Source: a virus
Taxonomy: Duplodnaviria > Caudoviricetes
IMG/VR virus record: IMGVR_UViG_3300036803_000072
Coordinates: 1 to 64,000 of that record
Direction: 5' to 3' (one strand)
Length of the DNA stretch: 64,000 nucleotides
The translations under genes were made by a program, and so were the position numbers. A model generated the notes under the pieces. The model had not been told where the DNA came from. It searched no databases and saw nothing but the letters and a program-made list of their open reading frames with translations. Below, one piece after another: positions 2,465-53,106 of the stretch (position 1 is its first letter; every line of letters starts with the position of its first letter).

Positions 2465-2473
2465 AGGAGCCTC

Positions 2474-29951: not shown

Positions 29952-29958
<7 letters not shown>

Positions 29959-31020: not shown

Positions 31021-31037
31021 CTGATCGAGGAGGCATC

Positions 31038-35535: not shown

Positions 35536-35701
35536 GCTGCGGCATCAGGATAGTGTCGACCATCCGAGCGAAATGCCATTCCTCGCACCATCTTTGCGCG
35601 CTCCTGACCATCATCGGCCCGTTGGGAGCCTTCAGCCAGACCTCCTCACTGGGCGGAAGGTCATGGAAGGGGCACTCCTGTGCCTCGTCAGACGTGGTCA
35701 T
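35381..35701 (-). CDS. Hypothetical protein
   Basis: ATGA-coupled to the MuF stop; its 3' end overlaps the dnaE 3' end in antisense. Confidence 0.4.
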   Translation of the reverse strand: MTTSDEAQECPFHDLPPSEEVWLKAPNGPMMVRSAQRWCEEWHFARMVDTILMPQLIRLIQEGDLYSGPPTDRPAAPPAGAAGELRPVRPAAATPHYSLGWPPVLS

Positions 35702-38025: not shown

Positions 38026-39679
38026 CCTCCAGCTCTAGGACTTTGGTTTGCGCCCCGGCCAGTTGCCCGCCGCCGCGATCGGCTTGCACGAGCGCCCGCT
38101 GGCCACCGGCACTGCCGTCGGCCGGGTCGGCGTTGGGGTCGCCATCGGACGGAATGTCCTGCCCGGAGCCCATGAGATCAGCGGACGGGTCGACCCCGAA
38201 ACCGGGCGGTAGGGAGTTGGGCACCCCGACCCCGCCGGGTAGCGAACCGGCGGCCGGCGGCGCGGGTGGCTGGCCACCCATGGGGGCTTTGCCCGCAGCA
38301 TCGGCGTCCCCATCGTGGGCGGGCTGATCGTCGGCGATGGCCAGGCGACCGGCCGGGATCCACAGCACACGGGAACCGGGAACGTCCCACGGGTCGAGCT
38401 CTTTGACTTCCCGGTACTCATCGATGGTGATGGCGCCACGGTCTAGGTCGGCAGCGGCCCGGTCCTCTCGCGCGCGCTTGTAGCGGCCGAGCACCCACAC
38501 GTCGGATACGTCGTGGGCGAGATAGGAGTCATCATCGAACCCACCGGGGGTGATGACGTCGAGCTGGGCATCGAGTAGCCGGAACAGGGGGAGCATGCCG
38601 TGCTCCCACGCTTTGGCGTAGTCGGCGTCGGCGTTATCGAAGGTCTGGCCTGATGAATCGGAGACGACGGACTCGGGGAGGCCGAACGCGACGCAGATCT
38701 CGCGTTTCGTCCGGTCCATGGTGTCGCCCCACTGGGTGTCCCGTGGGTGGCCGGAGGTGTCGATCCAGGAGACTTCGTCGGCTTCGATGACGACGGTGCG
38801 GGCGCCGGAAACGTCGGGGCCCCCGTTGAAACGGTGCTCCAGCATGTCCGCGTAGGCGTCTTCGATGGGGCCCTTGACGGCGGCGATACCGCCGGGGCGG
38901 CCGTCTTCCATCATGAAACGGCGGTTGTAGAGCCGAGCGTACTTATCGAGGTCCGCGCTCAGCCCGGCGGCCTCCATGGGCGACATGCCGCGCTCGAAGA
39001 TCGTGGGATGGGGGGAGCGCACCCACACGATGCCGCTGGGTTGGTCTTCAGGTGTGGCGTCCGGGTCGAACGGGGGGCGCCATTGCCACATCGGGGAGCC
39101 GTCGGCTACGGCGGTGGTGATGCGAAACGATTCGATGGGGGTGACGACGCCGCGCTCGTTCGGATCACTGGGGTTGATCTTGCGGCGACCGGGCACCGGC
39201 AGTACTCGATCGGGGTCCAAGAGGTACACCGAATGGATGCCGCCACCGCGCGATCGGACGGCTTCGACGAACACGCCCCGGCTCGACAGCATGAACTGGG
39301 CGATCAGCCGGTGCCGGAAGATCTGGGCAACTTCCCATTCGTTGGCGCGCCGATTCAGCCTGCGCAGTAACCGGACCTGGTCGCGACTGAGCTGCCCCGG
39401 CTCAATGATCGGGCCGGTGTCAGGATCCTCCCGGCGCAGCACGATACGTCGAGCCCGTTCGTTGGCCGCGACAAACTCGACGCACCGGAAAATGTAGGGG
39501 TTGAGGGTGTACCCCTCGGTGACCGCACGGTCGGTGTTCCACTCGGTCTGGTAGGGCTGACCGGGAACGATGTAGCCGCGCGGGCCGGACACGATGCGGG
39601 AATCCAGGCCGCCCTGGGACGTAGCGCCGGTGGCGAATCGCTGACGCAGGGCGGGGAACCACTTCGCGCTGCGGGCCAC
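37988..39679 (-). CDS. Portal protein (HK97 family)
   Basis: YIFRCV, VYLLDPDRV, GMSPMEAA, EDGRPGGI, REICVAFGLP, TFDNA, ITIDEYR; GTG 39679 follows GGAGGTG (alternative start 39718). Confidence 0.92.
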   Translation of the reverse strand: MARSAKWFPALRQRFATGATSQGGLDSRIVSGPRGYIVPGQPYQTEWNTDRAVTEGYTLNPYIFRCVEFVAANERARRIVLRREDPDTGPIIEPGQLSRDQVRLLRRLNRRANEWEVAQIFRHRLIAQFMLSSRGVFVEAVRSRGGGIHSVYLLDPDRVLPVPGRRKINPSDPNERGVVTPIESFRITTAVADGSPMWQWRPPFDPDATPEDQPSGIVWVRSPHPTIFERGMSPMEAAGLSADLDKYARLYNRRFMMEDGRPGGIAAVKGPIEDAYADMLEHRFNGGPDVSGARTVVIEADEVSWIDTSGHPRDTQWGDTMDRTKREICVAFGLPESVVSDSSGQTFDNADADYAKAWEHGMLPLFRLLDAQLDVITPGGFDDDSYLAHDVSDVWVLGRYKRAREDRAAADLDRGAITIDEYREVKELDPWDVPGSRVLWIPAGRLAIADDQPAHDGDADAAGKAPMGGQPPAPPAAGSLPGGVGVPNSLPPGFGVDPSADLMGSGQDIPSDGDPNADPADGSAGGQRALVQADRGGGQLAGAQTKVLELEGEQGRARPSGRR

Positions 39680-39739
39680 GCTCACCTCCGTAAAGATCGG
39701 GCGAGCCAATCTAGCCACGGACAGTGTCGTGAAATGGGG

Positions 39740-39772
39740 CGACGCGCCGGGCGGGGGATGCCCGGCGCGTCG
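39740..39772. repeat. 13-bp perfect inverted repeat upstream of the portal gene
   Basis: CGACGCGCCGGGC / GCCCGGCGCGTCG with a 7-nt loop. Confidence 0.55.
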
Positions 39773-39824
39773 AGGGGTGATTGCGGTGGAGCCATCGGCA
39801 GTGGTGTGACCGATACGACCGATC

Positions 39825-40145
39825 TTAGCCCTTACCGTCTAGCGATGCGTCCCAGTAGCCGAGAACGCGGGCGAGGTAGCCGGAAAACACGGCGACGAGC
39901 AGGCCCACCGCCGGTATCCCTCCGAGTGTCCATAGTGACCAGACGGCCACAGCGACGGCGACTACGGTCAGGAGGACCGCCCCCAGTTCTCTAGCTAACG
40001 GGCGAAGACTTCGATCTGTCGGGGCCGCCGCTGGTTGCGGGGTGGGATCGGTCTGGCGACTAACGCGGCCACCATCATCAACAACTCTGGGCGCAGCGGT
40101 AGGTGCACCGTGCCATGCCACGTGGTCAGTCTCAGTACTCCGCAC
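39825..40145 (-). CDS. Small two-TM membrane protein preceding the portal (true start probably downstream)
   Basis: Hydrophobic LGAVLLTVVAVAVAVWSLW...VGLLVAVFSGYL. Confidence 0.5.
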   Translation of the reverse strand: MRSTETDHVAWHGAPTAAPRVVDDGGRVSRQTDPTPQPAAAPTDRSLRPLARELGAVLLTVVAVAVAVWSLWTLGGIPAVGLLVAVFSGYLARVLGYWDASLDGKG

Positions 40146-40255
40146 TTCGCGCCTCTCAAAGCGTGGTGCCTACCTGATCTCGTCGTCTCTCGTGCCACTT
40201 GCTTCCGTGCCCTTCCAGTCGTGTGCCCCCGACGGTCGGACCCGCAACACCGAGA

Positions 40256-40280
40256 AGCCCCAACCTTAGAGGCTGGGGCT
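40256..40280 (-). terminator. Hairpin terminator ending the sigma-factor operon
   Basis: On the minus strand AGCCCCAGCC-TCTAA-GGTTGGGGCT forms a 10-bp stem (one G-U), downstream of 40343. Confidence 0.55.
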
Positions 40281-40342
40281 GCCGGCTAGATTAGCTACGG
40301 GCATCGAGCCAGTGAACCACGCGAGTGCAAGTGCGAACGAGA

Positions 40343-40609
40343 TTACGCGGGGCGCGTCTCGTCGCGGGCCGCAGTCAGCCTCTCGGCGTGGAGCAGTGCG
40401 ACCACCTCGTTGAGGGACTTCTCCACGGCGCGAGCTTGATCAGCCATCTGACGGAGTACGCGGGCGGCGACGGTCAGTGTTTCGGCGTGCTGCGCCAGGG
40501 CCACGGCGGCGTCATCGAGGTCGTTGGCGCGTGCGTACAGCGTGGCCATCTCTCGCAGGGTGCTGACTTGCGCTGCCCGTACGAGGTCGCGCGCGAGGCT
40601 ACTATCCAT
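40343..40609 (-). CDS. Small helical hypothetical protein
   Basis: ATG with GGGAG RBS; coiled-coil character. Confidence 0.55.
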   Translation of the reverse strand: MDSSLARDLVRAAQVSTLREMATLYARANDLDDAAVALAQHAETLTVAARVLRQMADQARAVEKSLNEVVALLHAERLTAARDETRPA

Positions 40610-40759
40610 CCTGGTCTCCCTCTAGTTGTTCCATCAGGGCGTCGCGCTCCGTTTGAAGGGCGCGGCGAGCCTGGTCGGTTTGGGCGTCGGCGTAGTCCAG
40701 CGCCCGTAGGCCGGCTTTGATCTGATCGAGGCGCTGCGGCATGGTCAGCACGGCGGTAC

Positions 40760-41380
40760 TCATCGGATCGCCTCGGGCACTCGCCTACGCATGGCCAGCA
40801 TCGCCCGATGCTGGAGGGCCTTGATGCGGCCGGTGTCGCCGCCCATGATCTCCCGGGTCTCCTCGATGGAAAGATCGCGGAAGTGGCGCAGGATCATCAC
40901 CTCGCGCTGCTGCTCGCTGAGCGTGTCCAGAGCCTCGATCACCTGAGCGACACCTTCTTTTTGGATTGTTCGATGCTCGGGATCGTAGAACGGTTCCGAG
41001 TATTCGTCGTGCACGCCGAGCATGTCCGAGCAGCAGATCTCGTTAACGGTGGACGACTTCTTGAAATAATCGAGCATGATGTTGCGAGCGATGGTGATGA
41101 ACCACGCGCCGACTGTCTTGCCGATGTTGTGCAGGGAATGGATATTTTTCAGTCCCCGCAGGAACGTCTCGGAGGCGAGGTCTTCCACTACCACGTTATC
41201 GTTTTGCATACGGAACCGTAGATAAAGGCGTACTGAGGTGTGGTAGCGGGACCACAGGTCGCCGTACGCGTCCGTGTCGCCGCTCTGCGCCCGGTAGACC
41301 AGCACCCAGGATTCGCGCTCGAAATCGGGGTCGAGCTCTCGCTGGGCGGGCTCGGGCCGGTTAATGGCCGGGGCGCTCAT
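40760..41380 (-). CDS. ECF sigma factor, BldN-like
   Basis: LV.RAQ.GD..AY..L..RY, EDLASETFLRGL, GAWFITIARN...DYFK, QQREV.ILR.F..LS.EET..IMG...G.IKALQHRA. Confidence 0.9.
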   Translation of the reverse strand: MSAPAINRPEPAQRELDPDFERESWVLVYRAQSGDTDAYGDLWSRYHTSVRLYLRFRMQNDNVVVEDLASETFLRGLKNIHSLHNIGKTVGAWFITIARNIMLDYFKKSSTVNEICCSDMLGVHDEYSEPFYDPEHRTIQKEGVAQVIEALDTLSEQQREVMILRHFRDLSIEETREIMGGDTGRIKALQHRAMLAMRRRVPEAIR

Positions 41381-41670
41381 CGGATCGTCCCGGCGGCAAC
41401 CCACTCGCCGGAGTCGCACAGCGCGGGCTGACCGCCGTCGATCTCGCACTGCTCGAAAGCCCGCGCATTGGTGTGGAAGTTGCGGCAGGTGGGGCACCAG
41501 CAGTCGGAGCAGACGTGGTCGCCGTCGTCGGTAAGCCCGTCGTAGCCGCGCGGGTCGCAGGTGGCCAGGCGACCCTCGAAACGGTCACTGATCACTGCCG
41601 TGACGCTGTTGGCGCAGCCGACGCACGGTGCAAGGGAGCACACGAGGCGGTCAGCGGGGATGGTTGACAC
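41377..41670 (-). CDS. Small Cys-rich hypothetical protein
   Basis: GAGGAGG RBS; CVGC, CSDC and CPTC motifs; coupled to the sigma gene. Confidence 0.55.
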   Translation of the reverse strand: MSTIPADRLVCSLAPCVGCANSVTAVISDRFEGRLATCDPRGYDGLTDDGDHVCSDCWCPTCRNFHTNARAFEQCEIDGGQPALCDSGEWVAAGTIR

Positions 41671-41765
41671 AGGAGCCTCCTCTAGGAGATCGACCGGAAC
41701 GCTGTCCACCGTACCACACTCCTCATGGCTGTCCAGCTATCCGTACAGGTTGTACGCTGCCGGTC

Positions 41766-42014
41766 ATGGCAATCACTGTGACCCGTTCATGGACCGACGA
41801 TCTGCAAGACGCGCGAGAGCGCATGAGAGAGGCGCGCAAAGCCCTAGAGGATTTGTCCGCTCACCTGGATGCACTAGCGGGGAACCCGACGCGAGGGCAC
41901 GCCTACCAGGTCTCCCGCACCGCGATCCTCGCAAAGACCCTGGTTAAGGAGACCTGCGAACACGGGCATCGGGCCGTCGCCGACTACCTGGGAAACCCCG
42001 CCAACCACGACTAG
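41766..42014 (+). CDS. Small helical hypothetical protein
   Basis: ATG 41766, divergent from the sigma operon. Confidence 0.5.
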   Translation: MAITVTRSWTDDLQDARERMREARKALEDLSAHLDALAGNPTRGHAYQVSRTAILAKTLVKETCEHGHRAVADYLGNPANHD

Positions 42015-42141
42015 GCTGCCCGCGTGGATGGGACCTGCCCGCGCTGTCATCGCCCGCGCTACGTGGTGTGTTCGCCCTACGTTGGCGCGATGGGCTGGTG
42101 CCCCTGCCGTCCAGACGGAGCGCAGCTATGGCCGGAGCTAG

Positions 42142-42975
42142 TCAGAGCTCAGTCTCATACAGCAACGAATAAGACGCGGCCTCGACCACGGTGACAGAGA
42201 ACTCCACCGCCCGCTGCCCGGCATAGAACACCCGCTCCACCTCCAGAACGCCGCTGGTGGTCTCAATACCCAGCGCGCGGCGCTCTAGCGGAGTCGGCGC
42301 CCGCCAACGGGCCTCCTCCCGCACGCGGGTGACCTCTTGCCCGATGCTGTAGAGCTCGGCGATAGTCCCACCGGGCCACGGCTGGCGCTTCGGATCAGCC
42401 ACCGGAGTGTTCTCCACCAGCGGTAGCGGGATCACCGAAGTCTGTAGCTGCACCGTCACGCCATGCACACGCTTGACCAGCTGCCTGCGCAGCACCCACC
42501 AACTGGTACCCGTCGTCGGCCCCAGTTCGAGCCGGTTCGCTTCCTTCGGCGAGGCGAGAACCTCCTCATACGCGGTGCCCACCCCGTAGGCCGACCAGTC
42601 GACACCGTGATCCTCGGTGAATGCCGAGGAGTCCGGATGTACACCGCCGTTGGCCCGGATCTTCTCCAGGGCCTCGGCGTAGCGGCTCGTGGTCATCCGA
42701 CGCACCTGCCGTTGCGCGGCTACTCGCGCGGGACGCCCGGTGCGCTTAACGAGTAGGCCTTCAGCGACCAGGGTGGACAGCGCGTGGCGCACGGTGTTGC
42801 GGTGCAGCCCGGATGCCTCAGCGAGATCAGCCTCGGCCGGTAGCGCCTCGTGCGGACCCAGGTCGCCGGACGCGATGGCGTCCCGCAGCACCGTCGCGAG
42901 CTGCTGATACAGCGCCCCGCCGGTTTCGTCGTACGGGTTTACCCGCGCCCGCACTGTCTCTAGGTCCAATGGCAC
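42142..42975 (-). CDS. GntR/HutC-family repressor with UTRA domain (KorSA/TraR-like)
   Basis: YQQLA..LR..I..G...P...LPAE..L....G..R.TVR.AL..L..EGL, plus C-terminal UTRA; leaderless (TATGAT 6 nt before GTG). Confidence 0.9.
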   Translation of the reverse strand: MPLDLETVRARVNPYDETGGALYQQLATVLRDAIASGDLGPHEALPAEADLAEASGLHRNTVRHALSTLVAEGLLVKRTGRPARVAAQRQVRRMTTSRYAEALEKIRANGGVHPDSSAFTEDHGVDWSAYGVGTAYEEVLASPKEANRLELGPTTGTSWWVLRRQLVKRVHGVTVQLQTSVIPLPLVENTPVADPKRQPWPGGTIAELYSIGQEVTRVREEARWRAPTPLERRALGIETTSGVLEVERVFYAGQRAVEFSVTVVEAASYSLLYETEL

Positions 42976-43016
42976 GGGTGCATCATAGCGCAGCTGTGCA
43001 GCTATCCACCTATACC

Positions 43017-43030
43017 GCTGTACGTACAGC
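43017..43030. promoter_or_regulatory. Putative GntR operator
   Basis: Perfect 14-bp palindrome GCTGTACGTACAGC (TGTA-N2-TACA core, HutC-type) between the divergent repressor and tra genes. Confidence 0.7.
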
Positions 43031-43120
43031 AGGGTGTACTCTGATCAAACCGCGCCTGCCGGGCGGGTGAACTGGCTTCCGCGCCTGGCAGGCGCCACCA
43101 ACGAGAGAGAGGAGACGCCG

Positions 43121-44017
43121 ATGGGCGCGCATCAGTCCGTCAGCCACGCGACTGATGCGCGCCTACTCGATCGTTGGACCCGCACCGGTGTCGCCGTCGC
43201 GGTCGCTCCCCTGTTGCCGTGGGGCGCGGTGCACGTCTTCCTACTCGCCGCCGCGTGCGGCATCCCCTCGTGGGTGGCTTGGATTCCCGCTCTGTCGACC
43301 ACGGGCGTGATGATCGCCTCGACCCGGCTGGCGCTCCAGCACAAGCTCGACCGCCACACCCGCGCGCTGGCCAAATACCTCTCCTGGTTCGCGATCACCC
43401 TCGACGCCCTGGTGTCGGGCATCTACCACGTGCTGCCCGTCCACCTCACGCCGAGCGCAGTCGTGATCTTCACCGTCGCCATCCTCCCCGCGATCATGGG
43501 CGGACTGCTGTGGCACATCCGGTCACTAGCCGGGGCGCAGGAATCCCGCGCAGCCGCCGAGGCAGCAGAGGCGGCCATCGCTGCGCAGACCGCTACGGCC
43601 GAGCTCGATGCGCAACGTCAAGCCCTCGCCCTCCAGGCCAGCGCCGACGAACAGCGCCGTCTCGACGAACTCAATCACGCGCAACAGATCGCAGACATCC
43701 GCAAGCAAGCGGCGCACGCCGCCGAACGTGAGCAGGCCGCCCGCAAGCGAGTCGCCGACGCGGTCACCGCGCCGAGCAAGCCACACCTCGTGCCCGACCC
43801 TCCGGCCGGGCCGGTGGACGCGCTGGGGCGCCCGGCGAAGGCGTCTCCGAAGCGGGACAAGGCCCTGCGCTACCTGATTGCCCAGGCAGGACGCCTCGAC
43901 GAGGTCACCGCCGCTGAGGTCGATCGACACATCGAGTCCAAGGGCTACGCCCGTAAGTACCTGACCGAATGGAAGGCCGGCGTGCGGACGCACGTCACGA
44001 ACAAGGGTGCCGCGTGA
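43121..44017 (+). CDS. Spd-like membrane spread protein (DUF2637-like)
   Basis: Four N-terminal TM helices, coiled coil and a C-terminal helical domain; AGGAG RBS; first gene of the tra operon. Confidence 0.6.
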   Translation: MGAHQSVSHATDARLLDRWTRTGVAVAVAPLLPWGAVHVFLLAAACGIPSWVAWIPALSTTGVMIASTRLALQHKLDRHTRALAKYLSWFAITLDALVSGIYHVLPVHLTPSAVVIFTVAILPAIMGGLLWHIRSLAGAQESRAAAEAAEAAIAAQTATAELDAQRQALALQASADEQRRLDELNHAQQIADIRKQAAHAAEREQAARKRVADAVTAPSKPHLVPDPPAGPVDALGRPAKASPKRDKALRYLIAQAGRLDEVTAAEVDRHIESKGYARKYLTEWKAGVRTHVTNKGAA

Positions 44018-45162
44018 TGGCCACAAAGACAGATACCTCACTGGAGAAGGCCCTAGCTGCCGCGCTGAAGGCGGCCGGGGTCAAGTCCACCGGAAGCAAG
44101 ACCAAGCGCAAGCCGTTCGGCAAGGGCCGGGTAGGGCGACTGTGGCGCAAAGAGCGGGAGGGCTGGAAGGAACGCAAGGCGGCCCGCAAAGGCAACCGCG
44201 AACCGAAGATCAAGACGCGTCGGGCGCGGTTCGCCGAACGTTTCAAGGCCCGCGTCGAACGCCTGCGGTACGGCAGCGCGCACTGCGGCAACTGCGGGGC
44301 CCGCATGTCCGGCAAAGACGCCGCCGGGCACGCCTGCGGGGGCAAGTCCAGCCCCGAGAAGTTCACCAAGATGAAGGCCCAGCTGCGTGACGTCGCCCGC
44401 AAGGAAGTCAAGCGCCAGGGCACCAACCGAGAGGCGAGGCGCGACCACCGCCAGGCCCGCAAAGACACCATGACCCGACCGGCACGGGTCGCGGACACGG
44501 TGATCCGACGTACCGCGCTGGTCGCCGGTTTCGCGGGCCGGTGCACCGAGTGCAACTCGATCATCCGCAACCACGAGGCGACCACCCACAAATGCTGGTC
44601 GGCCGAGCGCACGGCGGGCACCGACAGCCGGGCTGACAACACCACCCAGCCGGGCGGCAAGAGGCTCGGCACCGACAACGCAACCCAGCCCAACCCGGCT
44701 CCGGCAACCAGCAACGGCGCGACACCACCGGCGACACAACCCAACAGGAAGGCAGGACCAGCTATGACCAGTCCCAACGGCAAGGGTGGTGGCGGTGGCC
44801 CGTCCGGGCACGCCCAGGCCATCGCCCAGGCCATGCACAACTGGGCGCAGAACGTGCCCGGTACGCACTCCGAGATGGAAGCCGACATGCGCTCCATGCA
44901 GTGGCTGTTCGCCTCGGCCATGCCCTCCGCCATTCAGGCACGCGGGCAGGCGATGCTCGCGAAGCAGTTCCACCCGGAGTGCATCCGTCCCCTGATCGGG
45001 GTGGAAACCAACTGCGCCCAGGCCGGCGCCGGCTTCATGGAGTGCTACATGGCGATCACCACCATGTACAAGGCGCTGCTGGAGCACTACGCGGCCGGAA
45101 CCCCCGACCCCGGCCGCACCTACCTGTCCGACGGCCGTGTCCCGGCCGGCGCGACCGCGTAA
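44017..45162 (+). CDS. TraA-like accessory transfer protein
   Basis: TGATG coupling; basic N-terminus, two CxxC...H.C zinc motifs, helical C-terminus; lies just before traB. Confidence 0.5.
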   Translation: MATKTDTSLEKALAAALKAAGVKSTGSKTKRKPFGKGRVGRLWRKEREGWKERKAARKGNREPKIKTRRARFAERFKARVERLRYGSAHCGNCGARMSGKDAAGHACGGKSSPEKFTKMKAQLRDVARKEVKRQGTNREARRDHRQARKDTMTRPARVADTVIRRTALVAGFAGRCTECNSIIRNHEATTHKCWSAERTAGTDSRADNTTQPGGKRLGTDNATQPNPAPATSNGATPPATQPNRKAGPAMTSPNGKGGGGGPSGHAQAIAQAMHNWAQNVPGTHSEMEADMRSMQWLFASAMPSAIQARGQAMLAKQFHPECIRPLIGVETNCAQAGAGFMECYMAITTMYKALLEHYAAGTPDPGRTYLSDGRVPAGATA

Positions 45163-45183
45163 GAAAGGAAAGGCAAGACCACC

Positions 45184-47313
45184 ATGACTAAGCGCGTCGG
45201 TCACGCCCCGGCGATCACCTCGGAGCAGAGCTGGGGTGATTGGTATAACGCCAATCGTCTCCTGCTCAACCCGCTCGTTACGGGGACGGTCGTCGGGCTG
45301 GCCGGCGTGGTCAACGCGCTGATCCTGCCGTTGTGGCCGCACACCGTCCTGTGGGTGGGGATCGGGCTACTCGTCGCCCTGTTCACGACGGTGAATCTGA
45401 AGGACCGGGGGCAGCGCGCGTTCTATCGGGCGTTCTTTGTGGCTACCGCCGCATGGTTTTTCGCGCTCGAAACGTCACTAGCGGCCAACCACTGGCGGGC
45501 GTTCGTTGTGGGCTGGTTGTGCGCCACCCTGGTCGGCTGCGGCGGGTATTGGACCGACCAGCGGGTGCGCTCAAAGATCCGACTGTCGGATGATGAGGCG
45601 GCATGGCCGGACCTGGCGGCGAGCATCGGCATCCCGAAAGCATGGATCACTCCGAAGAAAACGACCGAGTCGGGCTACTCCCGGCGTTTGTCGTGGCCCC
45701 GGGGTACCTACCAGATCTCGCGCATCAAGGGCCTCTCCGAGGCACTGGAGAACGCGCTCGGTATCCCGCACGGGCAGATGCGTCTCATGCCGGTGAAGGA
45801 CAAAGACGAGAATATCGACTCGGGCTCCATCGATATTGTGGTGAACACCAACGCCGCATCCCGTAAGGCACCGGTGCCGTTCACCGTGCCCACCATGCGC
45901 CACATCACCGACCCGATGAACGTCGGCCCCTATGAGGACGGCGAGGACTGTGAGGTCTGCTGGTACACAAAGGGCTACGGCGGTATTCACACTCTGGCGG
46001 CCGGCATCACCCGCTCCGGCAAGTCCGGCCTGTATCACCTGATGCTCGCCGAAACTGCGGCGTGCACGGATGTGGTGCGTCTCGGTATCGACGCTAAAGG
46101 CGGCATGGCGCTGCGCCCGTGGGCGCCGATGTTCGAGTGGCTGGTCTGTGGCCGCAACTCCAAGGCTCAAGAGGAGCAGGCGGCGATGCTGGAATGGCTC
46201 GACGCCGAAATGATGGAGCGAGAGACCTACGCGGCCGAGAAAGGCTGGGACGTGTGGCGGGTGTCCAGGAAACACCCGTTGATCATCCTCTATATCGATG
46301 AGGTCAAAGAAGTCCTCGGCATGAAGCTGGAGAACTTCACCGCCCTAGAACTGGTGGGGAAGATCGGCACGATGGGTACCGGTGTCGGTGTCCTGTTGTG
46401 CCTAGCCACCCAGCACCCAACGTTGGAGGCGTTGGCGTCGAGCCAGATCCAGGCCAACATCGGTCGGCGGTTCTGTTTCCGGGTAGAGCGGGTGGCACAC
46501 CAGTACGTGATCCTGCCTAAGGGCACCGACATTGACGCCACGTTCCCGGACAAGCCGTCAGGCGATAAGGGCGCGGGGCACTGCTTCCTCAATGACGGCG
46601 GTTCGATGAAGCCGATGTCACTGCGTGTTCGCCACGTCAACCGGGGCAAGATCCGGGGCATCGTGGAGGAGTACTGGGAGTCGAAGTGCCCGATGCGGCC
46701 ACTGAACACGAAGGTGCGGGTAGACGCGTGGGATGACCGCAAGCGTTGGACGCTAGCGGATCTGCCCCGGCCGGAAGACGAGGACGCGGATGAGATCTGG
46801 GAGGACGAGGGGCCCGAGATCGTGCCCGAGGATGACGACGTGCCGGGCACGGCGGGACTGTTCGATGAGACTGTGACCGTGACTCAACCGGGTCCGGGAA
46901 AGGTGACTGAGACCGTGACTGTGGACGGGAATGAGAGGGTGACTGAGATGGTGACTGAGACGAACGAGCAGGTACCGGCGGGTGTGGATATCGACTTCGA
47001 GACGCTGCTGACGCCGCGCACACCGGAGGACGCGAGGATCCTGGCGAAGGCCCAGGCCGACTTCGCGGAGGAGATGGCGGAGTGGCCGACGGAGAAGGCA
47101 CGGACCGAGTTCTGGCGCGTGTTCGGTTTGGCGGGCTCGGACGGGATCCGGGTGGGCAAGCTCGCGGAACTGTGCCACCGGTCCACGTCGTGGGCCAGTG
47201 AGGAGCTGCGGGTGGCTCGTGAGGCGGGCCTGTTGGTGCCGGCAGCGACGAAGGGCTACTACCGGATCGCCCCCGGTGCGGAGATTCCCACCGCCCGCGC
47301 TCACGCTGAGTAG
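45184..47313 (+). CDS. traB: TraB, FtsK/SpoIIIE-family conjugative DNA translocase
   Basis: N-terminal TM helices, Walker A GITRSGKS, Walker B ILYIDE, LATQHP, C-terminal winged helix; AAGGAAAGG RBS. Confidence 0.88.
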   Translation: MTKRVGHAPAITSEQSWGDWYNANRLLLNPLVTGTVVGLAGVVNALILPLWPHTVLWVGIGLLVALFTTVNLKDRGQRAFYRAFFVATAAWFFALETSLAANHWRAFVVGWLCATLVGCGGYWTDQRVRSKIRLSDDEAAWPDLAASIGIPKAWITPKKTTESGYSRRLSWPRGTYQISRIKGLSEALENALGIPHGQMRLMPVKDKDENIDSGSIDIVVNTNAASRKAPVPFTVPTMRHITDPMNVGPYEDGEDCEVCWYTKGYGGIHTLAAGITRSGKSGLYHLMLAETAACTDVVRLGIDAKGGMALRPWAPMFEWLVCGRNSKAQEEQAAMLEWLDAEMMERETYAAEKGWDVWRVSRKHPLIILYIDEVKEVLGMKLENFTALELVGKIGTMGTGVGVLLCLATQHPTLEALASSQIQANIGRRFCFRVERVAHQYVILPKGTDIDATFPDKPSGDKGAGHCFLNDGGSMKPMSLRVRHVNRGKIRGIVEEYWESKCPMRPLNTKVRVDAWDDRKRWTLADLPRPEDEDADEIWEDEGPEIVPEDDDVPGTAGLFDETVTVTQPGPGKVTETVTVDGNERVTEMVTETNEQVPAGVDIDFETLLTPRTPEDARILAKAQADFAEEMAEWPTEKARTEFWRVFGLAGSDGIRVGKLAELCHRSTSWASEELRVAREAGLLVPAATKGYYRIAPGAEIPTARAHAE
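46867..46960 (+). repeat. GTGACTGAGA-type repeats inside traB
   Basis: GGTGACTGAGA at 46902, 46938 and 46950, plus GTGAC variants; encodes a VTET/ETVT linker. Confidence 0.7.
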
Positions 47314-47322
47314 TGGTGCCTA

Positions 47323-47474
47323 CTGGCGAGTCGAACTCGCCAGTGGACGCCAGACCTCGCCAGTCGGGCACCCCGCGCAGCTCCCACCTTAGGGATACTT
47401 CGCGGGGTGCCCAGAGGTCGCCAGGAGGCACCAGACCTCACCAACCCTCACCAGAGGTCGCCAGGAGGCACCAG
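47323..47474 (+). repeat. clt-like array: ten 8-bp repeats with 10-bp period, plus inverted repeats
   Basis: CCAG cores at 47340, 47350, 47360 and 47411-47471 in steps of 10 (one CCAA); inverted copy at 47323-30; 12-bp IR 47366-77/47401-12. Confidence 0.8.
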
Positions 47475-47507
47475 CGACCCGCTACCCACTGAGACGAGTG
47501 GTTACAG

Positions 47508-47816
47508 ATGGTTACCATGCAGGCGGTTGCCGAGCAGAGCTCCGGCGGCGGCACAGGCGGGCTGATCCTGCTCGCCCTCGGTGCCCTGCTGTGGTGGTTC
47601 GTCAAAGTGCAGCGCGACCCGTTGCGGCTGTGCCAGAAGTGCAAGGGCAAGCCACCGGGGGACGGACGGGGCAACTTCCACCACTGCCGCCGCTGCGGTG
47701 GCAACGCCCGGGTACTCAAACCGTCGGCGTGGGCACTGATGAAGGCAGGCGTCCCGGTGCCGCGTGCACGGAGCTCGAAGCAGCATCCGTTCCGCGTGCC
47801 TAAGGACGGCGAGTAG
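47508..47816 (+). CDS. Small TM + DnaJ-type zinc-finger protein
   Basis: TM helix, then CQKCKG...CRRCGG; the kind of gene seen next to actinomycete tra genes. Confidence 0.7.
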   Translation: MVTMQAVAEQSSGGGTGGLILLALGALLWWFVKVQRDPLRLCQKCKGKPPGDGRGNFHHCRRCGGNARVLKPSAWALMKAGVPVPRARSSKQHPFRVPKDGE

Positions 47817-48165
47817 ACGCGAGTCCGGTTCCCAAAGGTGACTGTGCCCCACCTCCAGACGCGGGGGGTGGGGCACAGTCCTGGGTGGTTCAGTCACGCT
47901 CACAGTCACTCCACGATCTCTACGGGCACGCCTGGGTGGTGCTGTTCAGTCCCTGTCGGCGGCGCGCTGATTCTGGTCACCGTAGTAGTGGTAGTAGTCG
48001 GCGTGGTCGGTGTTGCCGGCAGCTTCCGCCTGATCGCCGGCTGCATTCCAGTAGTCCGCCCAGTCCTGACGGGAAGAGATTCCTAGCCGGGCGGCGTAGT
48101 CACCAGAGTTGCTTTTCATGGTCGGTCTCCTTATAGGTCGAATGGATAGCGTTCTTAATTACGGG

Positions 48166-48564
48166 TCACCACGGGTCGTAGTCCCCGAACTCGGCCACCA
48201 ACTCATCCCAGCTGACCATGCACCCCCCGACCTCGATCCCGGTAGGTGCACCGGTGCCGTTGTCGTAGGTCATGTGGTACAGCAGGTGATAGGCGTACTC
48301 CAGGGTGTACCCCTCAGCCGCGTCGCTGGTCATGGGTTCGCGGTACCGCTTGTAATGCAGGACCACCAGTACCCGTGGGTAGGACAGGTGCTTTTCCAGC
48401 GCGACGAGTCGCATTCTCCACTGGTCGATCTGCTTATGACAGAGGTCGATCTGTTGCGTCAGGTCGAAGTTGGGGTCTTTGAGTTGCTCTGCCACGATCA
48501 CAGCATGGGTGTAGGCCATCCAGTCGGTTTCGCCGATGGGGGAAGTCGTGGCCACGTCAGTCAC
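48166..48564 (-). CDS. Hypothetical protein
   Basis: 132-aa ORF with phage-like composition. Confidence 0.5.
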   Translation of the reverse strand: MTDVATTSPIGETDWMAYTHAVIVAEQLKDPNFDLTQQIDLCHKQIDQWRMRLVALEKHLSYPRVLVVLHYKRYREPMTSDAAEGYTLEYAYHLLYHMTYDNGTGAPTGIEVGGCMVSWDELVAEFGDYDPW

Positions 48565-48749
48565 TTACCGGGTAAAGGTTGGCGAGCTCCCAACGCGTCA
48601 TCTCCAAGCGTTCGGCCATAACGGCGTCGGATTCGTATCCGCCTCCGGTGTCTGGGTTCCACCAGGAGTGGTCGCCTACGGGGACGGCGTTGTCTGCGGG
48701 TTTGTCGCCTCTGGTCATGGTCAGTCTCCCGAGGATCGAGGGGTAGCGG

Positions 48750-49307
48750 TCATTCGGCAGCGCGGATCGCGGCGATGATGGCCGGGAGGGCTTTCTCGAT
48801 GGCGGTCATGCTCAGGTCGAGGTGGTGGTCGTCTTCGGTTTTCGCGAAAGCGTCGGAGAGGTCCCAGGCGATCATCTTGGCGTCGGCGCCTTCGGGGAGT
48901 GCGTCTGCTTTGGCGGGAATGTAGTCAACGGCCTCAAACCAGCGCATGCCGGCGCCGTGAAGATTGATCGCCCAATTGGCGGCATCATCACTATCGGCGA
49001 AGACGCAGACGGCTCTGGTGTCCCGGCCGGGTTCATCGAGGAGTGCGACGTAGAGCTTAGGTGTGGGGTACATCTGTTCGAGGCAGTGTTCGATGTTCTC
49101 GCCGCACTCGATGGTCAAGTCGAGAAGACGTGGAGCGTCGACGGTGCCGAGGAGTTTGGCAGCAACACGGAGGAACGTGTCGCTCACTTCACCGTAGGCG
49201 CCGCCGGACTGATAGGCGAAATCCTGGGTGTGGGCAGCGTTGCAGGCCATCAGCGCGTCGCGAAGGGACTGGAGGACGGCGATGTCGGCGGGGTCGATGC
49301 GGGTCAT
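48750..49307 (-). CDS. Hypothetical protein
   Basis: GAGGAG RBS; follows the conserved motif at 49329-53. Confidence 0.65.
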   Translation of the reverse strand: MTRIDPADIAVLQSLRDALMACNAAHTQDFAYQSGGAYGEVSDTFLRVAAKLLGTVDAPRLLDLTIECGENIEHCLEQMYPTPKLYVALLDEPGRDTRAVCVFADSDDAANWAINLHGAGMRWFEAVDYIPAKADALPEGADAKMIAWDLSDAFAKTEDDHHLDLSMTAIEKALPAIIAAIRAAE

Positions 49308-49328
49308 GGCGGGGTCTCCTCTTCAGTG

Positions 49329-49353
49329 GACCGGAACACCCCAGACGCTACCA
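49329..49353 (-). promoter_or_regulatory. Conserved phage motif
   Basis: TGG TAGCGT ctgggg TGTTCCGGTC. Confidence 0.7.
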
Positions 49354-49374
49354 GGTACCGCGTAGGTGCGCAAC

Positions 49375-49875
49375 TCACACCTTGACGGCGCTCGCCGGGG
49401 CACTCCCATCCCGCACCAAACGCGCCGCATGCACCTCGATCAGCTTCCATCTCGGGGTGAGCAGCTGTTGCGCCCGAGATCGCGCCATTGCCAGCGAGAT
49501 CGGCGGTCGCCGGCCCCCGTAGTCCCGGAACATCTTCATATCCCCGGTCGCGCCCGCTTCCGCGTCACCCATGGCTTTGTCGAAACCGTCCCCCTTATAG
49601 AGGACGTGCCACATGGCCTCACCGACCTGCCCACCGACGCATGCGATGAGCCAGCCCGGCATCATCTCCGGCGAGATCTTCTCCATCTCGCATTTCGTGA
49701 CCCCGGCGACGCCCTCACCGACCATCCATACGTGCGTCTCGCCGGGTTGGAATCCGGCGAGCACGTCGAGAACCGCGTGGGACGCCTCGTGCACACCACC
49801 CCTGGTGAGCTGATGGGCGCGTAGGACGCCGTCGAAGTACTCGAAGCCGGGCAGGCCGGACCAGTGCTCACTCAT
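49375..49875 (-). CDS. HExxH metallopeptidase-like protein (M41-like)
   Basis: VHEASHAVL...IACVGGQVGE...ATGDM...A..LL...W. Confidence 0.65.
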   Translation of the reverse strand: MSEHWSGLPGFEYFDGVLRAHQLTRGGVHEASHAVLDVLAGFQPGETHVWMVGEGVAGVTKCEMEKISPEMMPGWLIACVGGQVGEAMWHVLYKGDGFDKAMGDAEAGATGDMKMFRDYGGRRPPISLAMARSRAQQLLTPRWKLIEVHAARLVRDGSAPASAVKV

Positions 49876-50057
49876 GTCTGCCTGTCCAGTGGCTGGATCA
49901 AGGTCATGCAGTGATTGGTGACGTCCTCGCCTTTCACGTTGCGCATACAGTCCCCCTCATGGATGTGCGTGCGAAGGCGGTGGTGGTACCAGTGTTCGCC
50001 GGTTATCGGCTCGTGGCAGCCGCCGCAGAGTGGGAGTGGGCGTTCAGTGTTCGTCAT
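49872..50057 (-). CDS. Small Cys/His-rich protein
   Basis: CGGC...H...C; coupled to neighbours. Confidence 0.5.
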   Translation of the reverse strand: MTNTERPLPLCGGCHEPITGEHWYHHRLRTHIHEGDCMRNVKGEDVTNHCMTLIQPLDRQT

Positions 50058-50608
50058 TCCCTTGACCCTCCTGTAGTCAGTTCGTTGAGTCGCGACATCA
50101 TGGCCTCCTCGGTCTTGCAGGTGGCATCAGCGAACGTAGGCGACTCCTCGGCACGGGGCTGCTCACCGGGGTGCACGCAGGAGACGACGAGGTAGCGGCC
50201 GTCGGTGCGCTGGTAGTGGTTGAAAGCCATGCCGTAGGCCTGCCGGGGCCCGTGGGCGTGCCAGCGGCCGGAGTAGCACTGCCCGTTGCCTATGAACATG
50301 CCGCACACCGTCCATAGGCTGGCTTCGGGGTAGCGGCGGATCTCCTCGGCCTCGTCGACTTCCTGGTCGGCGTAGTCCAGACGAGGCGCGCGGGTGATGT
50401 CGTGCCCGTGGTGCATGGTGCAGAGCAGGACATCAGTGGTGAACTGGCCGATGGCCAGGCCCTCCCGGTCGACCTGGAGCTCGACGAACTCTTGCGCCAC
50501 GGCGGCGTCGAGCTCGGCGAGCTCCACCTGATAGAACGCGGTCTGCCAGGCCTGCCACTCTCTGGTGAGGTCGGCGAGCAGGCAGCACAGGGTCACGGGG
50601 TAACTCAT
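50054..50608 (-). CDS. Hypothetical protein
   Basis: Coupled ORF in the minus-strand array. Confidence 0.55.
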   Translation of the reverse strand: MSYPVTLCCLLADLTREWQAWQTAFYQVELAELDAAVAQEFVELQVDREGLAIGQFTTDVLLCTMHHGHDITRAPRLDYADQEVDEAEEIRRYPEASLWTVCGMFIGNGQCYSGRWHAHGPRQAYGMAFNHYQRTDGRYLVVSCVHPGEQPRAEESPTFADATCKTEEAMMSRLNELTTGGSRE

Positions 50609-51450
50609 CGCCGGCCGCCGCTAGAACCGCCGGAGCGACCACTGCTACCGCTACTGCCACCTGAGCGACCACTGCTCGATCCGGAACTGGATCCGGTGTA
50701 GGACTTGCTTCCCCCGGTGTAGGTCTTATCAATACCGGGACTGGTATTGCTGTTCTTGGTCTTCGGGGTGGTCGTGCCGGGCTTGCTGGTCGGTGCGTCG
50801 CCGGCCGCCGAACCAGGCGTGACGTTGGTGCCCTTGAATGCGGACTTAGGTGCGGTGGCGCCGGTGTAGGTCTTGCCACTGGCGGTCTTGTAGCCGCCGG
50901 TCTTCGGGTTGGCCGCTGCCGCCTTCTCTTGTGCCGCGTATTTAGTATTGGTGGGCTGCACAACGGTGGTGTGATAGTTGTTCACGGTCGTGATCCGGGT
51001 GACCGGTGCGTGGCCGTACCCGTAGTAGGTGCCGGGGTAGCGCGACCACGCGGGCCCGATATGCCGGTAGTAGTAGCCGTCGCTGTAGTAGTAGTCCGAG
51101 TGACCCAGGCCGAAGCGGAACATGGCACCGAGGGCGAACCAGTCCGCGTCGCTCATGCCCGTTTGGCGTACTGGCTGGGTGGTGGGCATGGCGAAGTCGC
51201 AGGCCCGCAGGCCCGACCCGTCGGTCTCGTGCGGGTTGTTCACCCAGGGGGCGCACTTCTCACCGGTGGTGGGGTTGGTGAACGCGGTGGGCGCGATGGT
51301 CTGGTCATCGTTGGTGGCGGAGTCGCATGCGGCGGCCGAGGGGGCGATGACGGCGACGGCGATCAGGGCTAGTAGGAGGGCTTTGAGTCGGGCGGGAATG
51401 TTCATGGCAGATCCTTCGGGGTGTGCTGGGTGACGAGGGTCTGGAGCCAC
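50605..51450 (-). CDS. Putative lipoprotein with Gly/Ser-rich tail (true start probably MNIPAR)
   Basis: Signal peptide ending SAAAC, Tyr-rich middle, SGSSSGRSGG repeats. Confidence 0.6.
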   Translation of the reverse strand: MAPDPRHPAHPEGSAMNIPARLKALLLALIAVAVIAPSAAACDSATNDDQTIAPTAFTNPTTGEKCAPWVNNPHETDGSGLRACDFAMPTTQPVRQTGMSDADWFALGAMFRFGLGHSDYYYSDGYYYRHIGPAWSRYPGTYYGYGHAPVTRITTVNNYHTTVVQPTNTKYAAQEKAAAANPKTGGYKTASGKTYTGATAPKSAFKGTNVTPGSAAGDAPTSKPGTTTPKTKNSNTSPGIDKTYTGGSKSYTGSSSGSSSGRSGGSSGSSGRSGGSSGGRR

Positions 51451-51713
51451 TCGGGCAGCGAATCACCGACACCACCGGGCCAGTAGGTGTTCTCACATCG
51501 ACCTAGTCCGTCGGTACCGTCTTTCCACCGTCGGGGGCCGAAGATCGCGACCTGCTCGGCGGACCAGTCGCCCGCGTCGAATCGGTATTCGATGCAGATA
51601 GCGTCGGGCCGGAACATGGCCAATCCGTAGAGCCTGTGAACAGGTGGCGCGTCGACGAGGTCGGCGGTGAGCTCCCGCTTATAGCGAGGGTTGGTGAGCG
51701 TGACGTCGGGCAT
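51402..51713 (-). CDS. Hypothetical protein
   Basis: GAGGAG RBS after the motif at 51737-61. Confidence 0.6.
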   Translation of the reverse strand: MPDVTLTNPRYKRELTADLVDAPPVHRLYGLAMFRPDAICIEYRFDAGDWSAEQVAIFGPRRWKDGTDGLGRCENTYWPGGVGDSLPEWLQTLVTQHTPKDLP

Positions 51714-51736
51714 GGCAGAAGTCTCCTCACATCATG

Positions 51737-51761
51737 GACCGGAACACAAGCCAGGCTACCA
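51737..51761 (-). promoter_or_regulatory. Conserved phage motif
   Basis: TGG TAGCCT ggcttg TGTTCCGGTC. Confidence 0.7.
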
Positions 51762-52262
51762 CTGTCGTGGCTGATGGTACAGCGGAATTAGCGCAGGGCG
51801 ATCCAAATCCCCAGGACGCCGCCCAGAGCGCCCGCCAGCACCAGCAGGACGGCGATCAGGATGGCCAACCACGGGCTCGGCTGAGACGCTTCCTGGTTCG
51901 CGGCGACGTCGAGCAGTGCGGGGTGCGGTACGGCGTCGATCTCAGCGCGCCAGCCGGCGAGCAGAGTGGCCAACTCGTCGCGCCCGGCGTGCGCAGCCGG
52001 GTCGTCGAGCAGGGCGTCGTCGGAGATGAGGGGGTCGAGCCGGTCGCGCAGGGCCCGATCGGTGATGTCGTCGGTCATGACCGGGCCACCTTGACCAGTG
52101 CGACAGCGACAGCGATGAGGACCAGCGGCACGACCAGCATGCCGAGGAAGACTAGGGCAGCGGCCACAGCCATTGCCGTCAACAGGCCGTTGAGCAGGTA
52201 GATCATGAACTCCTCCTAGAGTTGACCGGAACACTAGGAGTATCGCCGCTGGTCGCGGGCTG

Positions 52263-52505
52263 TTACCGGTCGCCGCCATCGAAAAAGCGGCGTACGTAAC
52301 CAGCCTCTACGGCTGGAGCCGTGTGTCGATCACACACGCCGAATGGTGTATCACCCACGAAGATGTAACCGCTGACTGCCCCCTCGTGAGGTCGCCCACA
52401 GACGCAGCGATACTCCATGGCCTCACCGAGGCAGGCTTCGCGGAGCTGGTCTGCGGTCAGCTGCTGGGCTTGCTCAATAGCAGCGATAAATTCGTCTGGT
52501 GTCAC
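52263..52505 (-). CDS. Small Cys-containing hypothetical protein
   Basis: CVC...CDRH motif, similar to the C-terminus of 53630-53983. Confidence 0.5.
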   Translation of the reverse strand: MTPDEFIAAIEQAQQLTADQLREACLGEAMEYRCVCGRPHEGAVSGYIFVGDTPFGVCDRHTAPAVEAGYVRRFFDGGDR

Positions 52506-52518
52506 GCGGGGACACCTG

Positions 52519-53106
52519 TTACCGGGTCGCCTTGTGGCGGTCCTGGCAGGTTTGGCACATGTCGCCCAGGACGGTGAAGGGGAACTCAGGGGCCACGGCG
52601 TAGTCGCCCACGGAGCATTCCGACTCGCGGACCCGGGCCTCGATCGTGCCCGATAGCTCGTGCCGGCAGTCGCTGTAGCGGTGCAGCCGGAACTCTGGAG
52701 TGCGGAAGCGGTAGTCGTGCCACAGGGTCACGACCGCTTCCGGGTCTGCTTGTGTTTCGCCGTACCGCCGGTCGGCGCACGCTACGCAGTACTCCTCCGA
52801 GTCGCGCAGCTCGGCCAGCACTTCGGCCTTCGCTGACTCATGCGCGTCACTCCGGTCGCCGTCCTCTCGGATCGCTTCCTGATGCTGGAGCAGCGTGTCG
52901 CGGTAGTCGTCGAGCAGCGTTGCCACGGTGTCGTAGTCGTAGAGGGCTTGACTGCCCAGTGGAGGCGCTTCCACGGTCCAGTCGTGCACACCTCGGTGGT
53001 CGGCCAGGGTGCGGCGCCAGCGACCGCTCAAGGCGGGGCAGTAGATGTAGACCCCGGAGTGCTCACCTTCGGGTACCCAGCGGACTGCGGGCGGGTCGGT
53101 GCTCAC
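52519..53106 (-). CDS. Hypothetical protein
   Basis: Coupled ORF with CVAC and CQTC motifs. Confidence 0.55.
   Translation of the reverse strand: MSTDPPAVRWVPEGEHSGVYIYCPALSGRWRRTLADHRGVHDWTVEAPPLGSQALYDYDTVATLLDDYRDTLLQHQEAIREDGDRSDAHESAKAEVLAELRDSEEYCVACADRRYGETQADPEAVVTLWHDYRFRTPEFRLHRYSDCRHELSGTIEARVRESECSVGDYAVAPEFPFTVLGDMCQTCQDRHKATR

Follow-up and report, generated by a model that had tools for sequence, protein, structure and literature searches.

We identified a transfer-type gene module in a soil virus contig which shows similarities in gene organization, protein sequence and repeat architecture to the TraR-TraA-TraB-clt loci of Streptomyces plasmids. The window analyzed here, a stretch of 64,000 nucleotides, is the first 64 kb of a single linear IMG/VR virus contig of 77,313 bp that originates from soil (IMGVR_UViG_3300036803_000072). 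The module spans positions 42142-47880 of the window, next to the portal gene of a phage with a contractile tail (Table 1). It consists of a GntR-type repressor gene and, divergently oriented from it, a gene for a DUF2637-type membrane protein (gene A), a gene for a zinc-finger protein (gene B), a gene for a TraB-like translocase, a clt-like repeat array and a small gene. What is new here, as judged from comparative sequence analysis, is that a complete TraR/DUF2637/TraB/clt-like cassette is a clade-defining core module of large myoviruses. We think it on balance probable that the module represents a double-stranded DNA (dsDNA) translocation system of the TraR-TraB-clt type, belonging to the core genome of a clade of soil myoviruses of approximately 100-120 kb.

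Genes and repeat array of the module

The TraB-like protein is a member of the FtsK/SpoIIIE family. It contains a Walker A motif (GITRSGKS) at residue 274, an invariant D372/E373 pair, hydrophobic N-terminal helices at approximately residues 25-101 (residues 30-148 in the structural model) and a C-terminal winged helix; an earlier note on this DNA, made from the sequence alone, had listed these features as those of an intact TraB, and each of them was recovered. The N-terminal region aligns with the N-terminus of plasmid TraB proteins and is predicted to form a membrane association domain. In the AlphaFold model an alpha/beta core is followed by a disordered linker and by a winged helix composed of three helices (residues 636-653, 657-664, and 668-680) and a beta hairpin (residues 684-695), with a predicted local distance difference test (pLDDT) score of approximately 75-86. 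The winged helix aligns with the C-terminus of plasmid TraB, including an R-S-x-S-W motif, and its predicted role is the reading of DNA. A Foldseek search matched the core of the model to the FtsK motor (E 3e-16, target TM score 0.61-0.68 over approximately 400 columns) and then to the conjugative coupling protein TcpA and to EccC. Profile searches of the PDB also returned FtsK, and the Pfam match to FtsK_SpoIIIE was sub-threshold only.

Family models and phylogeny place the protein closer to TraB than to the chromosomal translocases. The NCBIfam model plasmid_TraB (NF041214) matched residues 77-698 over model positions 61-635 of 639 (E 1.1e-23, 83.7 bits), whereas the FtsK and EccC models scored approximately 15 bits; slower-evolving relatives matched plasmid_TraB end to end with 93-149.6 bits. 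The functional Tra protein of pIJ101 has no match to this model at all, the match of Gilgamesh gp10 is confined to the motor, and the FtsK-like genes of 50-kb prophage-like contigs prefer the EccC/FtsK models. A profile of 24 family members aligned with the annotated TraB of plasmid pSSPS4.7a from the membrane part through the winged helix (hhalign 99.1%, 601 columns). In a quick maximum-likelihood tree the phage proteins grouped together (approximate likelihood ratio test, aLRT, 91) as sister to the clade of named plasmid TraB proteins (86), with pIJ101 Tra, a proven conjugative translocase, and the Gilgamesh pair further out and the prophage FtsK-like proteins as outgroup; having long branches and a midpoint root, this tree shows only that the phage proteins lie within the span of conjugative translocases. 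Judged by these comparisons, the phage protein is a remote homologue of conjugative TraB and nearest to TraB rather than to FtsK/SpoIIIE. The linker is encoded in part by in-frame 12-nt repeats (GTGACTGAGACC-like, 46866-46960) specifying TVTVTQ...TETVTV, and inverted copies of these repeats occur at 47887-47909, just past the right end of the module.

The repressor gene is divergent from the plus-strand operon, and its assignment as a GntR-UTRA repressor with an operator, also proposed in the earlier note, agrees with the Pfam matches (Table 1) and with the palindrome described here. The protein is 32% identical to pIJ101 KorA over the helix-turn-helix (HTH) and 53-57% or 27-42% identical to its counterparts in relatives. 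The intervening region contains a perfect 14-bp palindrome, GCTGTACGTACAGC, at 43017-43030 and a box, GCTGTGCAGCTATCC, at 42994-43008. Relatives carry dyads of their own with a GTAC core at the equivalent position, such as GTACACCCGGTGTAC in loci L005 and L006, and the repressor would be expected to bind at the palindrome. The module has the divergent GntR-type repressor typical of kil-kor-type systems, combining GntR and UTRA domains with a palindrome, and the plasmids share this layout. A second operator-like box is located at 41729-41760 (GCTGTCCAGCTATCC then GTACAGGTTGTAC), upstream of two small plus-strand open reading frames (ORFs) that converge on the repressor gene and may be part of its regulon. 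An Rfam search over 41400-48300 gave no match, a promoter consensus scan returned nothing, and terminator matches were uninformative.

In the product of gene A, hydrophobic segments that we read as four membrane helices are followed by a linker of coiled-coil/low-complexity character and, at the C-terminus, by a small HTH-like domain. An alternative start is possible at 43034. Four of nine members of the gene A family matched DUF2637 in Pfam (best 2.3e-19), and the DUF2637 protein encoded in the traB operon of plasmid CP109424 aligned with the family (hhalign 95.8%, E 6.7e-9). No similarity was found between gene A and SpdB of pIJ101, and a lead in the Atlas from gene A pointed to the families SpdB_N and HTH_SpdB_C, with a score of less than 0.9. 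The proposal of a Spd-like membrane gene therefore stands in part: the gene matches DUF2637, as does a protein encoded in a plasmid traB operon, yet it is unrelated to pIJ101 SpdB, so that the term is valid only in the sense of DUF2637 family and operon context.

The start of gene B overlaps the stop codon of gene A. The protein is basic. It carries two CxxC...HxC motifs and a linker rich in Pro and Thr, its C-terminal helical domain is conserved, and C90, C93, and H105 are invariant. None of nine members had an NCBIfam match, no family match was obtained for the protein, and similarity to plasmid TraA was limited to the C-terminal domain with an hhalign probability of only 19%. Gene B is real and conserved, but its previous labelling as TraA-like is unsupported.

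The repeat array lies in the 194-bp spacer that follows the traB stop codon. It is built from an 8-mer, [C/G]TCGCCAG and variants, of which nine direct copies and one inverted copy are arranged in strict 10-bp phase. Block 1 (47323-47363) contains the inverted and three direct 8-mers, and block 2 (47417-47474) contains six direct 8-mers. Between them lies a hairpin with a 12-bp stem and a conserved element in its loop (47366-47412). Enrichment of exact 7-mers is too crude a measure for degenerate repeats, and a motif-specific count was taken as the valid statistic: TC[GA]CCAG occurs six times in the 200 bp of the array, and 52 times in the whole 77 kb (29 copies on the plus and 23 on the minus strand), and no other 200-bp stretch has more than two copies. 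An equivalent two-block array comes after traB in all phage relatives as well as in Streptomyces plasmids, and its motif is specific to each. In the plasmids the motifs are CCGCACA (six copies), CCTGACAC (six copies) and CTGACA (five copies). In the phage relatives they are CTCCGGA (L002/L003), CCAGAAC (L004), (C/A)(G/A)TCCA(G/A)C (L005/L006), GTCCGG (L008/L009), ACCGTCCA (L010) and CGTCCAGT (L012).

Direct 8-bp repeats recognized by the cognate TraB are a known component of clt regions (Thoma et al., PMC4447253). An alignment of the winged helices of the phage and plasmid proteins showed that helix 3 begins with R-(S/K)-x-S-W, followed by variable residues. Like helices go with like array motifs (CP109424/CP108819/pCQ3, L010/L012, L008/L009, L004/L005, and L005/L006) and unlike helices with different ones. 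The comparison is qualitative; such co-variation is what a pair of TraB and TraB recognition sequence (TRS) predicts. At the center of the array, a short element (CCTTAGGGATACT in the window, CCTGTAGATACT in L012, and CCTTAGGTAATG in pCQ3, at approximately 8040-8075 of L063) is similar between the two phage lineages (L004, L005, L006, L008-L012) and pCQ3 while the flanking 8-mers vary, and it may be a promoter, a host-factor site or a translocation start. The clt-like character that had been suggested for the array is thus borne out by nine phased 8-mers after traB in a plasmid-like architecture, with binding by TraB as the predicted function.

The module ends with a gene for a protein with one membrane helix and a CxxC...CxxC zinc ribbon, in agreement with the membrane-zinc-finger gene proposed previously. 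The hairpin beyond it precedes convergent minus-strand genes, and is the probable terminator and right edge of the module.

Conservation of the module in a clade of contractile-tailed phages

Portal, MuF-like, major head, sheath and tube genes are all present on the contig (Table 1), so the placement of the module inside a contractile-tailed phage genome, as had been proposed, is correct. Further profile matches identified a neck protein, a DnaE-type polymerase and a sigma factor. The contig has a G+C content of 66% and is approximately 64% complete (CheckV). As an ORF runs open off the contig start and no terminase was found in the 77 kb, the contig must be part of a larger phage with a contractile tail. 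A terminase was detected only in relatives, the explanation being a cut in the window contig that probably lies inside the tape-measure gene. Whole records were searched for four relatives: three of 101-121 kb, which have terminal repeats and are 100% complete, and a fourth that is 92% complete. In each of them a T4-like terminase is encoded far from the module. A role of the TraB-like protein as packaging ATPase was considered and rejected because of this separate terminase.

Relatives of the TraB-like protein were obtained from several sources. The protein database contained approximately 25 metagenomic relatives (31-85% identity). A locus search of viral contigs with a single protein yielded nothing, whereas scanning IMG/VR with the TraB alignment and then with a portal alignment identified 54 portal-related loci. 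TraB is present in 16 other viral contigs, and two further contigs end after GntR and gene A. The module adjoins the portal gene in all loci with a portal identity of at least 42% and enough flank, except for one (L093), and it is absent from approximately 12 loci with a portal identity of 38% or less, including the Gordonia phage GMA6 type. Within the closer lineage the order of GntR, gene A, gene B, TraB, array and small gene is constant, and the module proteins are 32-57% identical compared to 63-75% for portal and MuF. The order in the deeper lineage is DarB-like gene, MuF, portal, (GntR), gene A, gene B, TraB and array. Divergence of the module parallels that of portal and MuF. The ratio of nonsynonymous to synonymous substitutions (dN/dS), was saturated in every pair except L005/L006; in this pair it was 0.14 (TraB) and 0.15 (small gene), as under purifying selection. 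Clade-wide synteny, parallel divergence and low dN/dS together indicate that the module is an old and selected part of the phage clade, and on this comparative evidence we regard it as an ancestral trait of the clade and not as a passenger.

Among the findings that, according to the earlier note, would speak against its reading are att sites and an integrase that mark the module as an independent integrative and conjugative element (ICE), and a chimeric assembly; neither was found. No tyrosine integrase or serine recombinase was detected in the contig or in the four relatives that are 92-100% complete, and no integrase, resolvase, att site or flanking repeat bounds the module. Synteny extends over the 16 other contigs. 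Four soil metagenome runs, each from a different study, contain the module stretch, and its depth in independent soil runs is even. A single Logan contig of 38 kb from the probable source run spans 35348-53000 without any difference. In a second sample the portal, the module and the genes to its right are tiled by contigs at 7-9x, and one of these contigs connects the end of TraB with the array, the small gene and the genes that follow. An ICE insertion and an assembly chimera were rejected. None of the public runs listed as carrying the module stretch was an RNA run.

Genes for plasmid maintenance were also searched for. In the four relatives that are 92-100% complete neither ParB (ParB_N) nor ParA (AAA_31, CbiA-type) was detected; the finding is limited to partition genes, as no search for Rep was made and the window contig itself is only approximately 64% complete. 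The TraB alignment found no relative in 185,579 species genomes, and 72,556 plasmids gave remote motor-domain matches only. The DNA of the module had no match in cultured phages, among which no member of the clade was found. Overall, neither lysogeny or plasmid-maintenance genes nor a cultured or isolate-borne member were found for this clade.

Table 1. Positions of the module and of other features in the window
Feature	Position	Strand	Basis or remark
GntR-family repressor with UTRA effector domain (TraR/KorA-like)	42142-42975	-	Pfam GntR 6.1e-16, UTRA 2e-11
Divergent promoter/operator region, 145 bp	42976-43120		Palindrome scan
Gene A, DUF2637-type membrane protein	43121-44017	+	Alignment, Pfam, hhalign, hydropathy
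Gene B, basic zinc-finger protein	44017-45162	+	Translation and family alignment
TraB-like FtsK/SpoIIIE-family dsDNA translocase, 709 amino acids	45184-47313	+	NCBIfam, hhalign, model, tree
clt-like array	47323-47474	+	Repeat and inverted-repeat analysis
Small protein, 102 amino acids, one membrane helix and zinc ribbon	47508-47816	+	Hydropathy; conserved in close lineage
Hairpin, 17-bp stem, 94% complementary	47840-47880		Inverted repeat
Two small ORFs convergent on the repressor gene	41767-42014, 42024-42194	+	Second is Cys-rich
Portal	37988-39718	-	Pfam Phage_portal 3e-29 and PHROG portal matches; constant module neighbor in all relatives
MuF-like head morphogenesis protein with intein	35698-38025	-	phrog_15127 1.7e-45; Pfam Intein_splicing 1.1e-5
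Major head protein	14465-15898	-	phrog_10 1.2e-50
Tail assembly chaperone, tail tube, tail sheath region	1371-3937	-	Profile searches
Tail tube	2051-2464	-	phrog_5102 3.8e-27
Tail sheath	2474-3937	-	phrog_23 2e-32; contractile tail
ORF of more than 353 codons, off contig start	3-1061	-	Just after tail chaperone; probably tape-measure gene
DnaE-type Pol III alpha, full gene	31966-35535	+	Opposite strand to flanking structural genes
DarB-like antirestriction/methyltransferase/helicase, single ORF of 3,259 amino acids	16734-26513	-	phrog_10089 E 0; phrog_11801 9e-197
Gene adjoining the DarB-like ORF	26510-28264	-	Matches head maturation protease and RNA ligase
DUF932 protein	29952-31256	-	Pfam 2.6e-30

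Proposed role of the module and alternative explanations

Comparison with known systems shows which of them the phage module resembles most. The Streptomyces TraR-TraA-TraB-clt loci of the pSVH1 type (pSSPS4.7a, CP109424, CP108819, and pCQ3) share with it the divergent GntR gene, an operon that encodes a DUF2637 membrane protein, a TraB in which a membrane anchor is combined with an FtsK motor and a winged helix, and, immediately behind traB, two blocks of direct 8-mers around a central element. The small plasmids read GntR on the minus strand and then traA, traB, a hypothetical gene and DUF2637, and a 60-kb plasmid reads GntR on the minus strand and then three small genes, an FtsK-like gene and, further on, DUF2637. 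The phage module differs from these plasmids in a TraB identity of only approximately 22-27%, in the position of the DUF2637 gene (before traB in the phages, after it in the plasmids), in the zinc-finger protein that takes the place of TraA, in the lack of an Int gene in the clade, and in its carrier of approximately 100-120 kb with head and contractile-tail genes. The korA-tra(kilA)-spd-clt locus of pIJ101, in which clt lies near korB (PMC3583192), shares a divergent GntR-type KorA (32% over the HTH) and an FtsK-like Tra (motor 26% identical). The TraB clade is closer to the phage proteins than the Tra of pIJ101 is, and the SpdB of pIJ101 is unrelated to gene A. With the chromosome translocases FtsK and SpoIIIE (FtsK-orienting polar sequences, KOPS, and SpoIIIE recognition sequences, SRS) the phage protein shares the hexameric motor fold and, by prediction, the reading of 8-bp words by a winged helix, but the phage has a single local array instead of genome-wide skewed words, and its protein is short and of the plasmid type. 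The reading of the module as a kor/traR-spd-traB-clt system, with which the analysis started, is in this way backed by homology, by layout and by comparison with real plasmids.

FtsK-like genes are common in actinophages and their role has been left open (bioRxiv 10.1101/2024.02.16.580700; PMC11536984). Those of Gilgamesh (gp10), of cluster BE phages such as Wofford and of the Mycobacterium phages Omega and Thibault resemble the TraB-like protein in the motor domain only (24-29%). Gilgamesh, whose portal is 31% identical to the portal of the window, has a tyrosine integrase, and neither in this phage nor in a Gilgamesh-like plasmid is the FtsK-like gene accompanied by an adjacent GntR gene, a DUF2637 partner or a following array. 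Seven Streptomyces 'plasmids' of 125-132 kb carry a portal of approximately 33-35% identity (CP108533, CP122459, CP107821, CP070374, CP108441, CP109288, and CP107934). CP108533 is recorded as circular, and at least three of them (CP108533, CP122459, and CP108441) have a Gilgamesh-type FtsK-like gene. From their sequences, these elements look like extrachromosomal copies of phages similar to Gilgamesh (NC_073461).

We favor, with modest confidence, the interpretation that the module moves phage dsDNA across hyphal septa or between hyphae. The repressor, bound to the dyad of the divergent promoter, would hold the operon down by the same kil-kor logic as in plasmids, and upon release of the operon gene A, gene B and the TraB-like translocase would be made. 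Hexamers of TraB in the membrane at cross-walls or hyphal contacts would load through their winged helices on the phased 8-mers after traB, and the FtsK-like motor would then pump unprocessed phage dsDNA into the neighboring compartment or hypha, resulting in infection without virion or receptor. Binding of the array by TraB, the phage genome as cargo and passage of the DNA across septa or cell envelopes are inferred parts of this proposal. For a phage that is apparently non-lysogenic, spread between compartments would be at least as likely as mating between donor and recipient. A more far-reaching version, in which apparently virulent large phages have made a conjugation machine part of their infection cycle and pump replicated genomes as naked dsDNA across hyphal cross-walls or into hyphae in contact, appears to us possible rather than probable.

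If transfer of this kind takes place, viruses of multicellular bacteria would have a route of spread that is independent of virions and receptors. Phage spread in mycelial bacteria would not depend solely on adsorption; receptor loss, adsorption blocks and containment in hyphal compartments could be bypassed, and current views of plaque growth, host range and gene flow among soil actinomycetes would have to be revised. Pumping would also explain the FtsK-like genes of actinophages, long without an explanation; the module offers for them a concrete mechanism that can be tested and that has a defined cis site. The co-evolution of a conjugation-type module with head genes, across a deep divergence, is a clear case in which the boundary between phage and plasmid was crossed in the direction of the phage.

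Several observations weigh against this role. The plasmid_TraB score of 83.7 bits (at most 149.6 in relatives) is far below the NCBIfam equivalog cut-off of 800, so the protein is a remote homologue of TraB and not an equivalog, and an equal function is not guaranteed. By sequence, gene A is unrelated to the SpdB of pIJ101 that has been studied, and gene B has no known counterpart. Locus L093 holds GntR and gene A, but at the place of TraB it encodes an 814-amino-acid P-loop protein (L093:3777-6221, minus strand; Walker A GGTRFGKT at residue 298) that has no detectable similarity to TraB and represents either a replacement or an extreme divergence of it. A genome of 100-120 kb that is being replicated and packaged would be an unusual cargo. 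A further point is the resemblance of the two-block array to a pac site. Judged from the G+C content of 66%, from best matches to Streptomyces, Kitasatospora and Gordonia elements and from a WhiB gene in one relative, the host is probably an actinomycete; this is an indirect assignment, and a mycelial habit would be an assumption.

Among the alternatives, a plasmid-phage comparable to pZL12 fares best, although we consider it unlikely. In this case TraB and clt would conjugate an extrachromosomal prophage and virions would be formed only on induction. pZL12/phiZL12 of Streptomyces is reported to be a plasmid which also forms virions and which carries a conjugal tra locus (cited in PMC4487206 and PMC3583192), and because of this precedent an element with both a virion and a conjugal route is not new in principle. 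Relatives that assemble with terminal repeats are compatible with circles, no integrase was found, and a tight repressor with an effector domain fits a quiescent state. By published description, pZL12 and pSLE1 encode ParA/ParB, carry a repA locus and occur in isolates as plasmids, whereas the present clade is known from metagenomes alone. The four relatives that are 92-100% complete yielded no ParA, ParB or serine recombinase, and the 185,579 species genomes and 72,556 plasmids contained nothing closer than the remote motor-domain matches, even though Gilgamesh-like elements do occur as isolate plasmids.

Next in rank, and unlikely as well, is a translocase that acts within a single infection cycle, by pulling in the genome after its first segment, by anchoring or segregating replicating genomes at the membrane, or by pumping phage DNA into spores as they form. 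For any of these tasks a membrane anchor, an FtsK motor and one sequence-specific site for loading would likewise be needed, and FtsK-like genes without a known role are common in actinophages; the module moreover adjoins head genes. The nearest relatives of the protein are conjugative TraB proteins and not FtsK or SpoIIIE, however, and the operon combines a DUF2637 protein typical of plasmid transfer and spread operons with a kil-kor repressor. A repressed gene would also be of no help to the entry of its own genome unless it were located on the first injected segment.

It is improbable that the array is instead a pac site or a regulatory site of the small gene, with the TraB-like protein being a leftover or serving another task. 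In the pac site of phage P1, short repeats form two blocks on either side of a conserved central element, a layout which the array recalls, and the relatives are probably headful packagers (T4-like terminase; near-identical genomes with different ends). The central element is also similar to a -10 region before the small gene in the close lineage. Yet an equivalent array follows traB in Streptomyces plasmids of 10-17 kb that have no packaging genes, its motif co-varies with the TraB winged helix, and in the distant lineage there is no gene after the array in that direction for it to regulate. A leftover is difficult to reconcile with a TraB ORF that is intact in every relative except L093 and with the dN/dS of 0.14 in the one unsaturated pair. 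Finally, although the closest named relatives of all parts are on plasmids, a separate ICE or plasmid fragment in a phage, or an assembly chimera, is highly improbable given the lack of an integrase, resolvase or flanking repeat, the identical order and portal position in 16 other contigs from different metagenomes, the divergence in parallel with portal and MuF, the 38-kb Logan contig without differences and the tiling at 7-9x in a second sample.

Other genes of the contig

Several neighboring genes have affinities outside the virion genes. Giant proteins such as the one encoded by the DarB-like ORF are also typical of conjugative elements. The DUF932 family is common on conjugative plasmids and ICEs, and the DUF932 gene is a second plasmid-flavored gene amid the head genes. 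Beyond the window, a peptidase M50 of the site-2 protease family is encoded at contig positions 68348-69148 (L001:8348-9148, minus strand; Pfam 9.8e-23).

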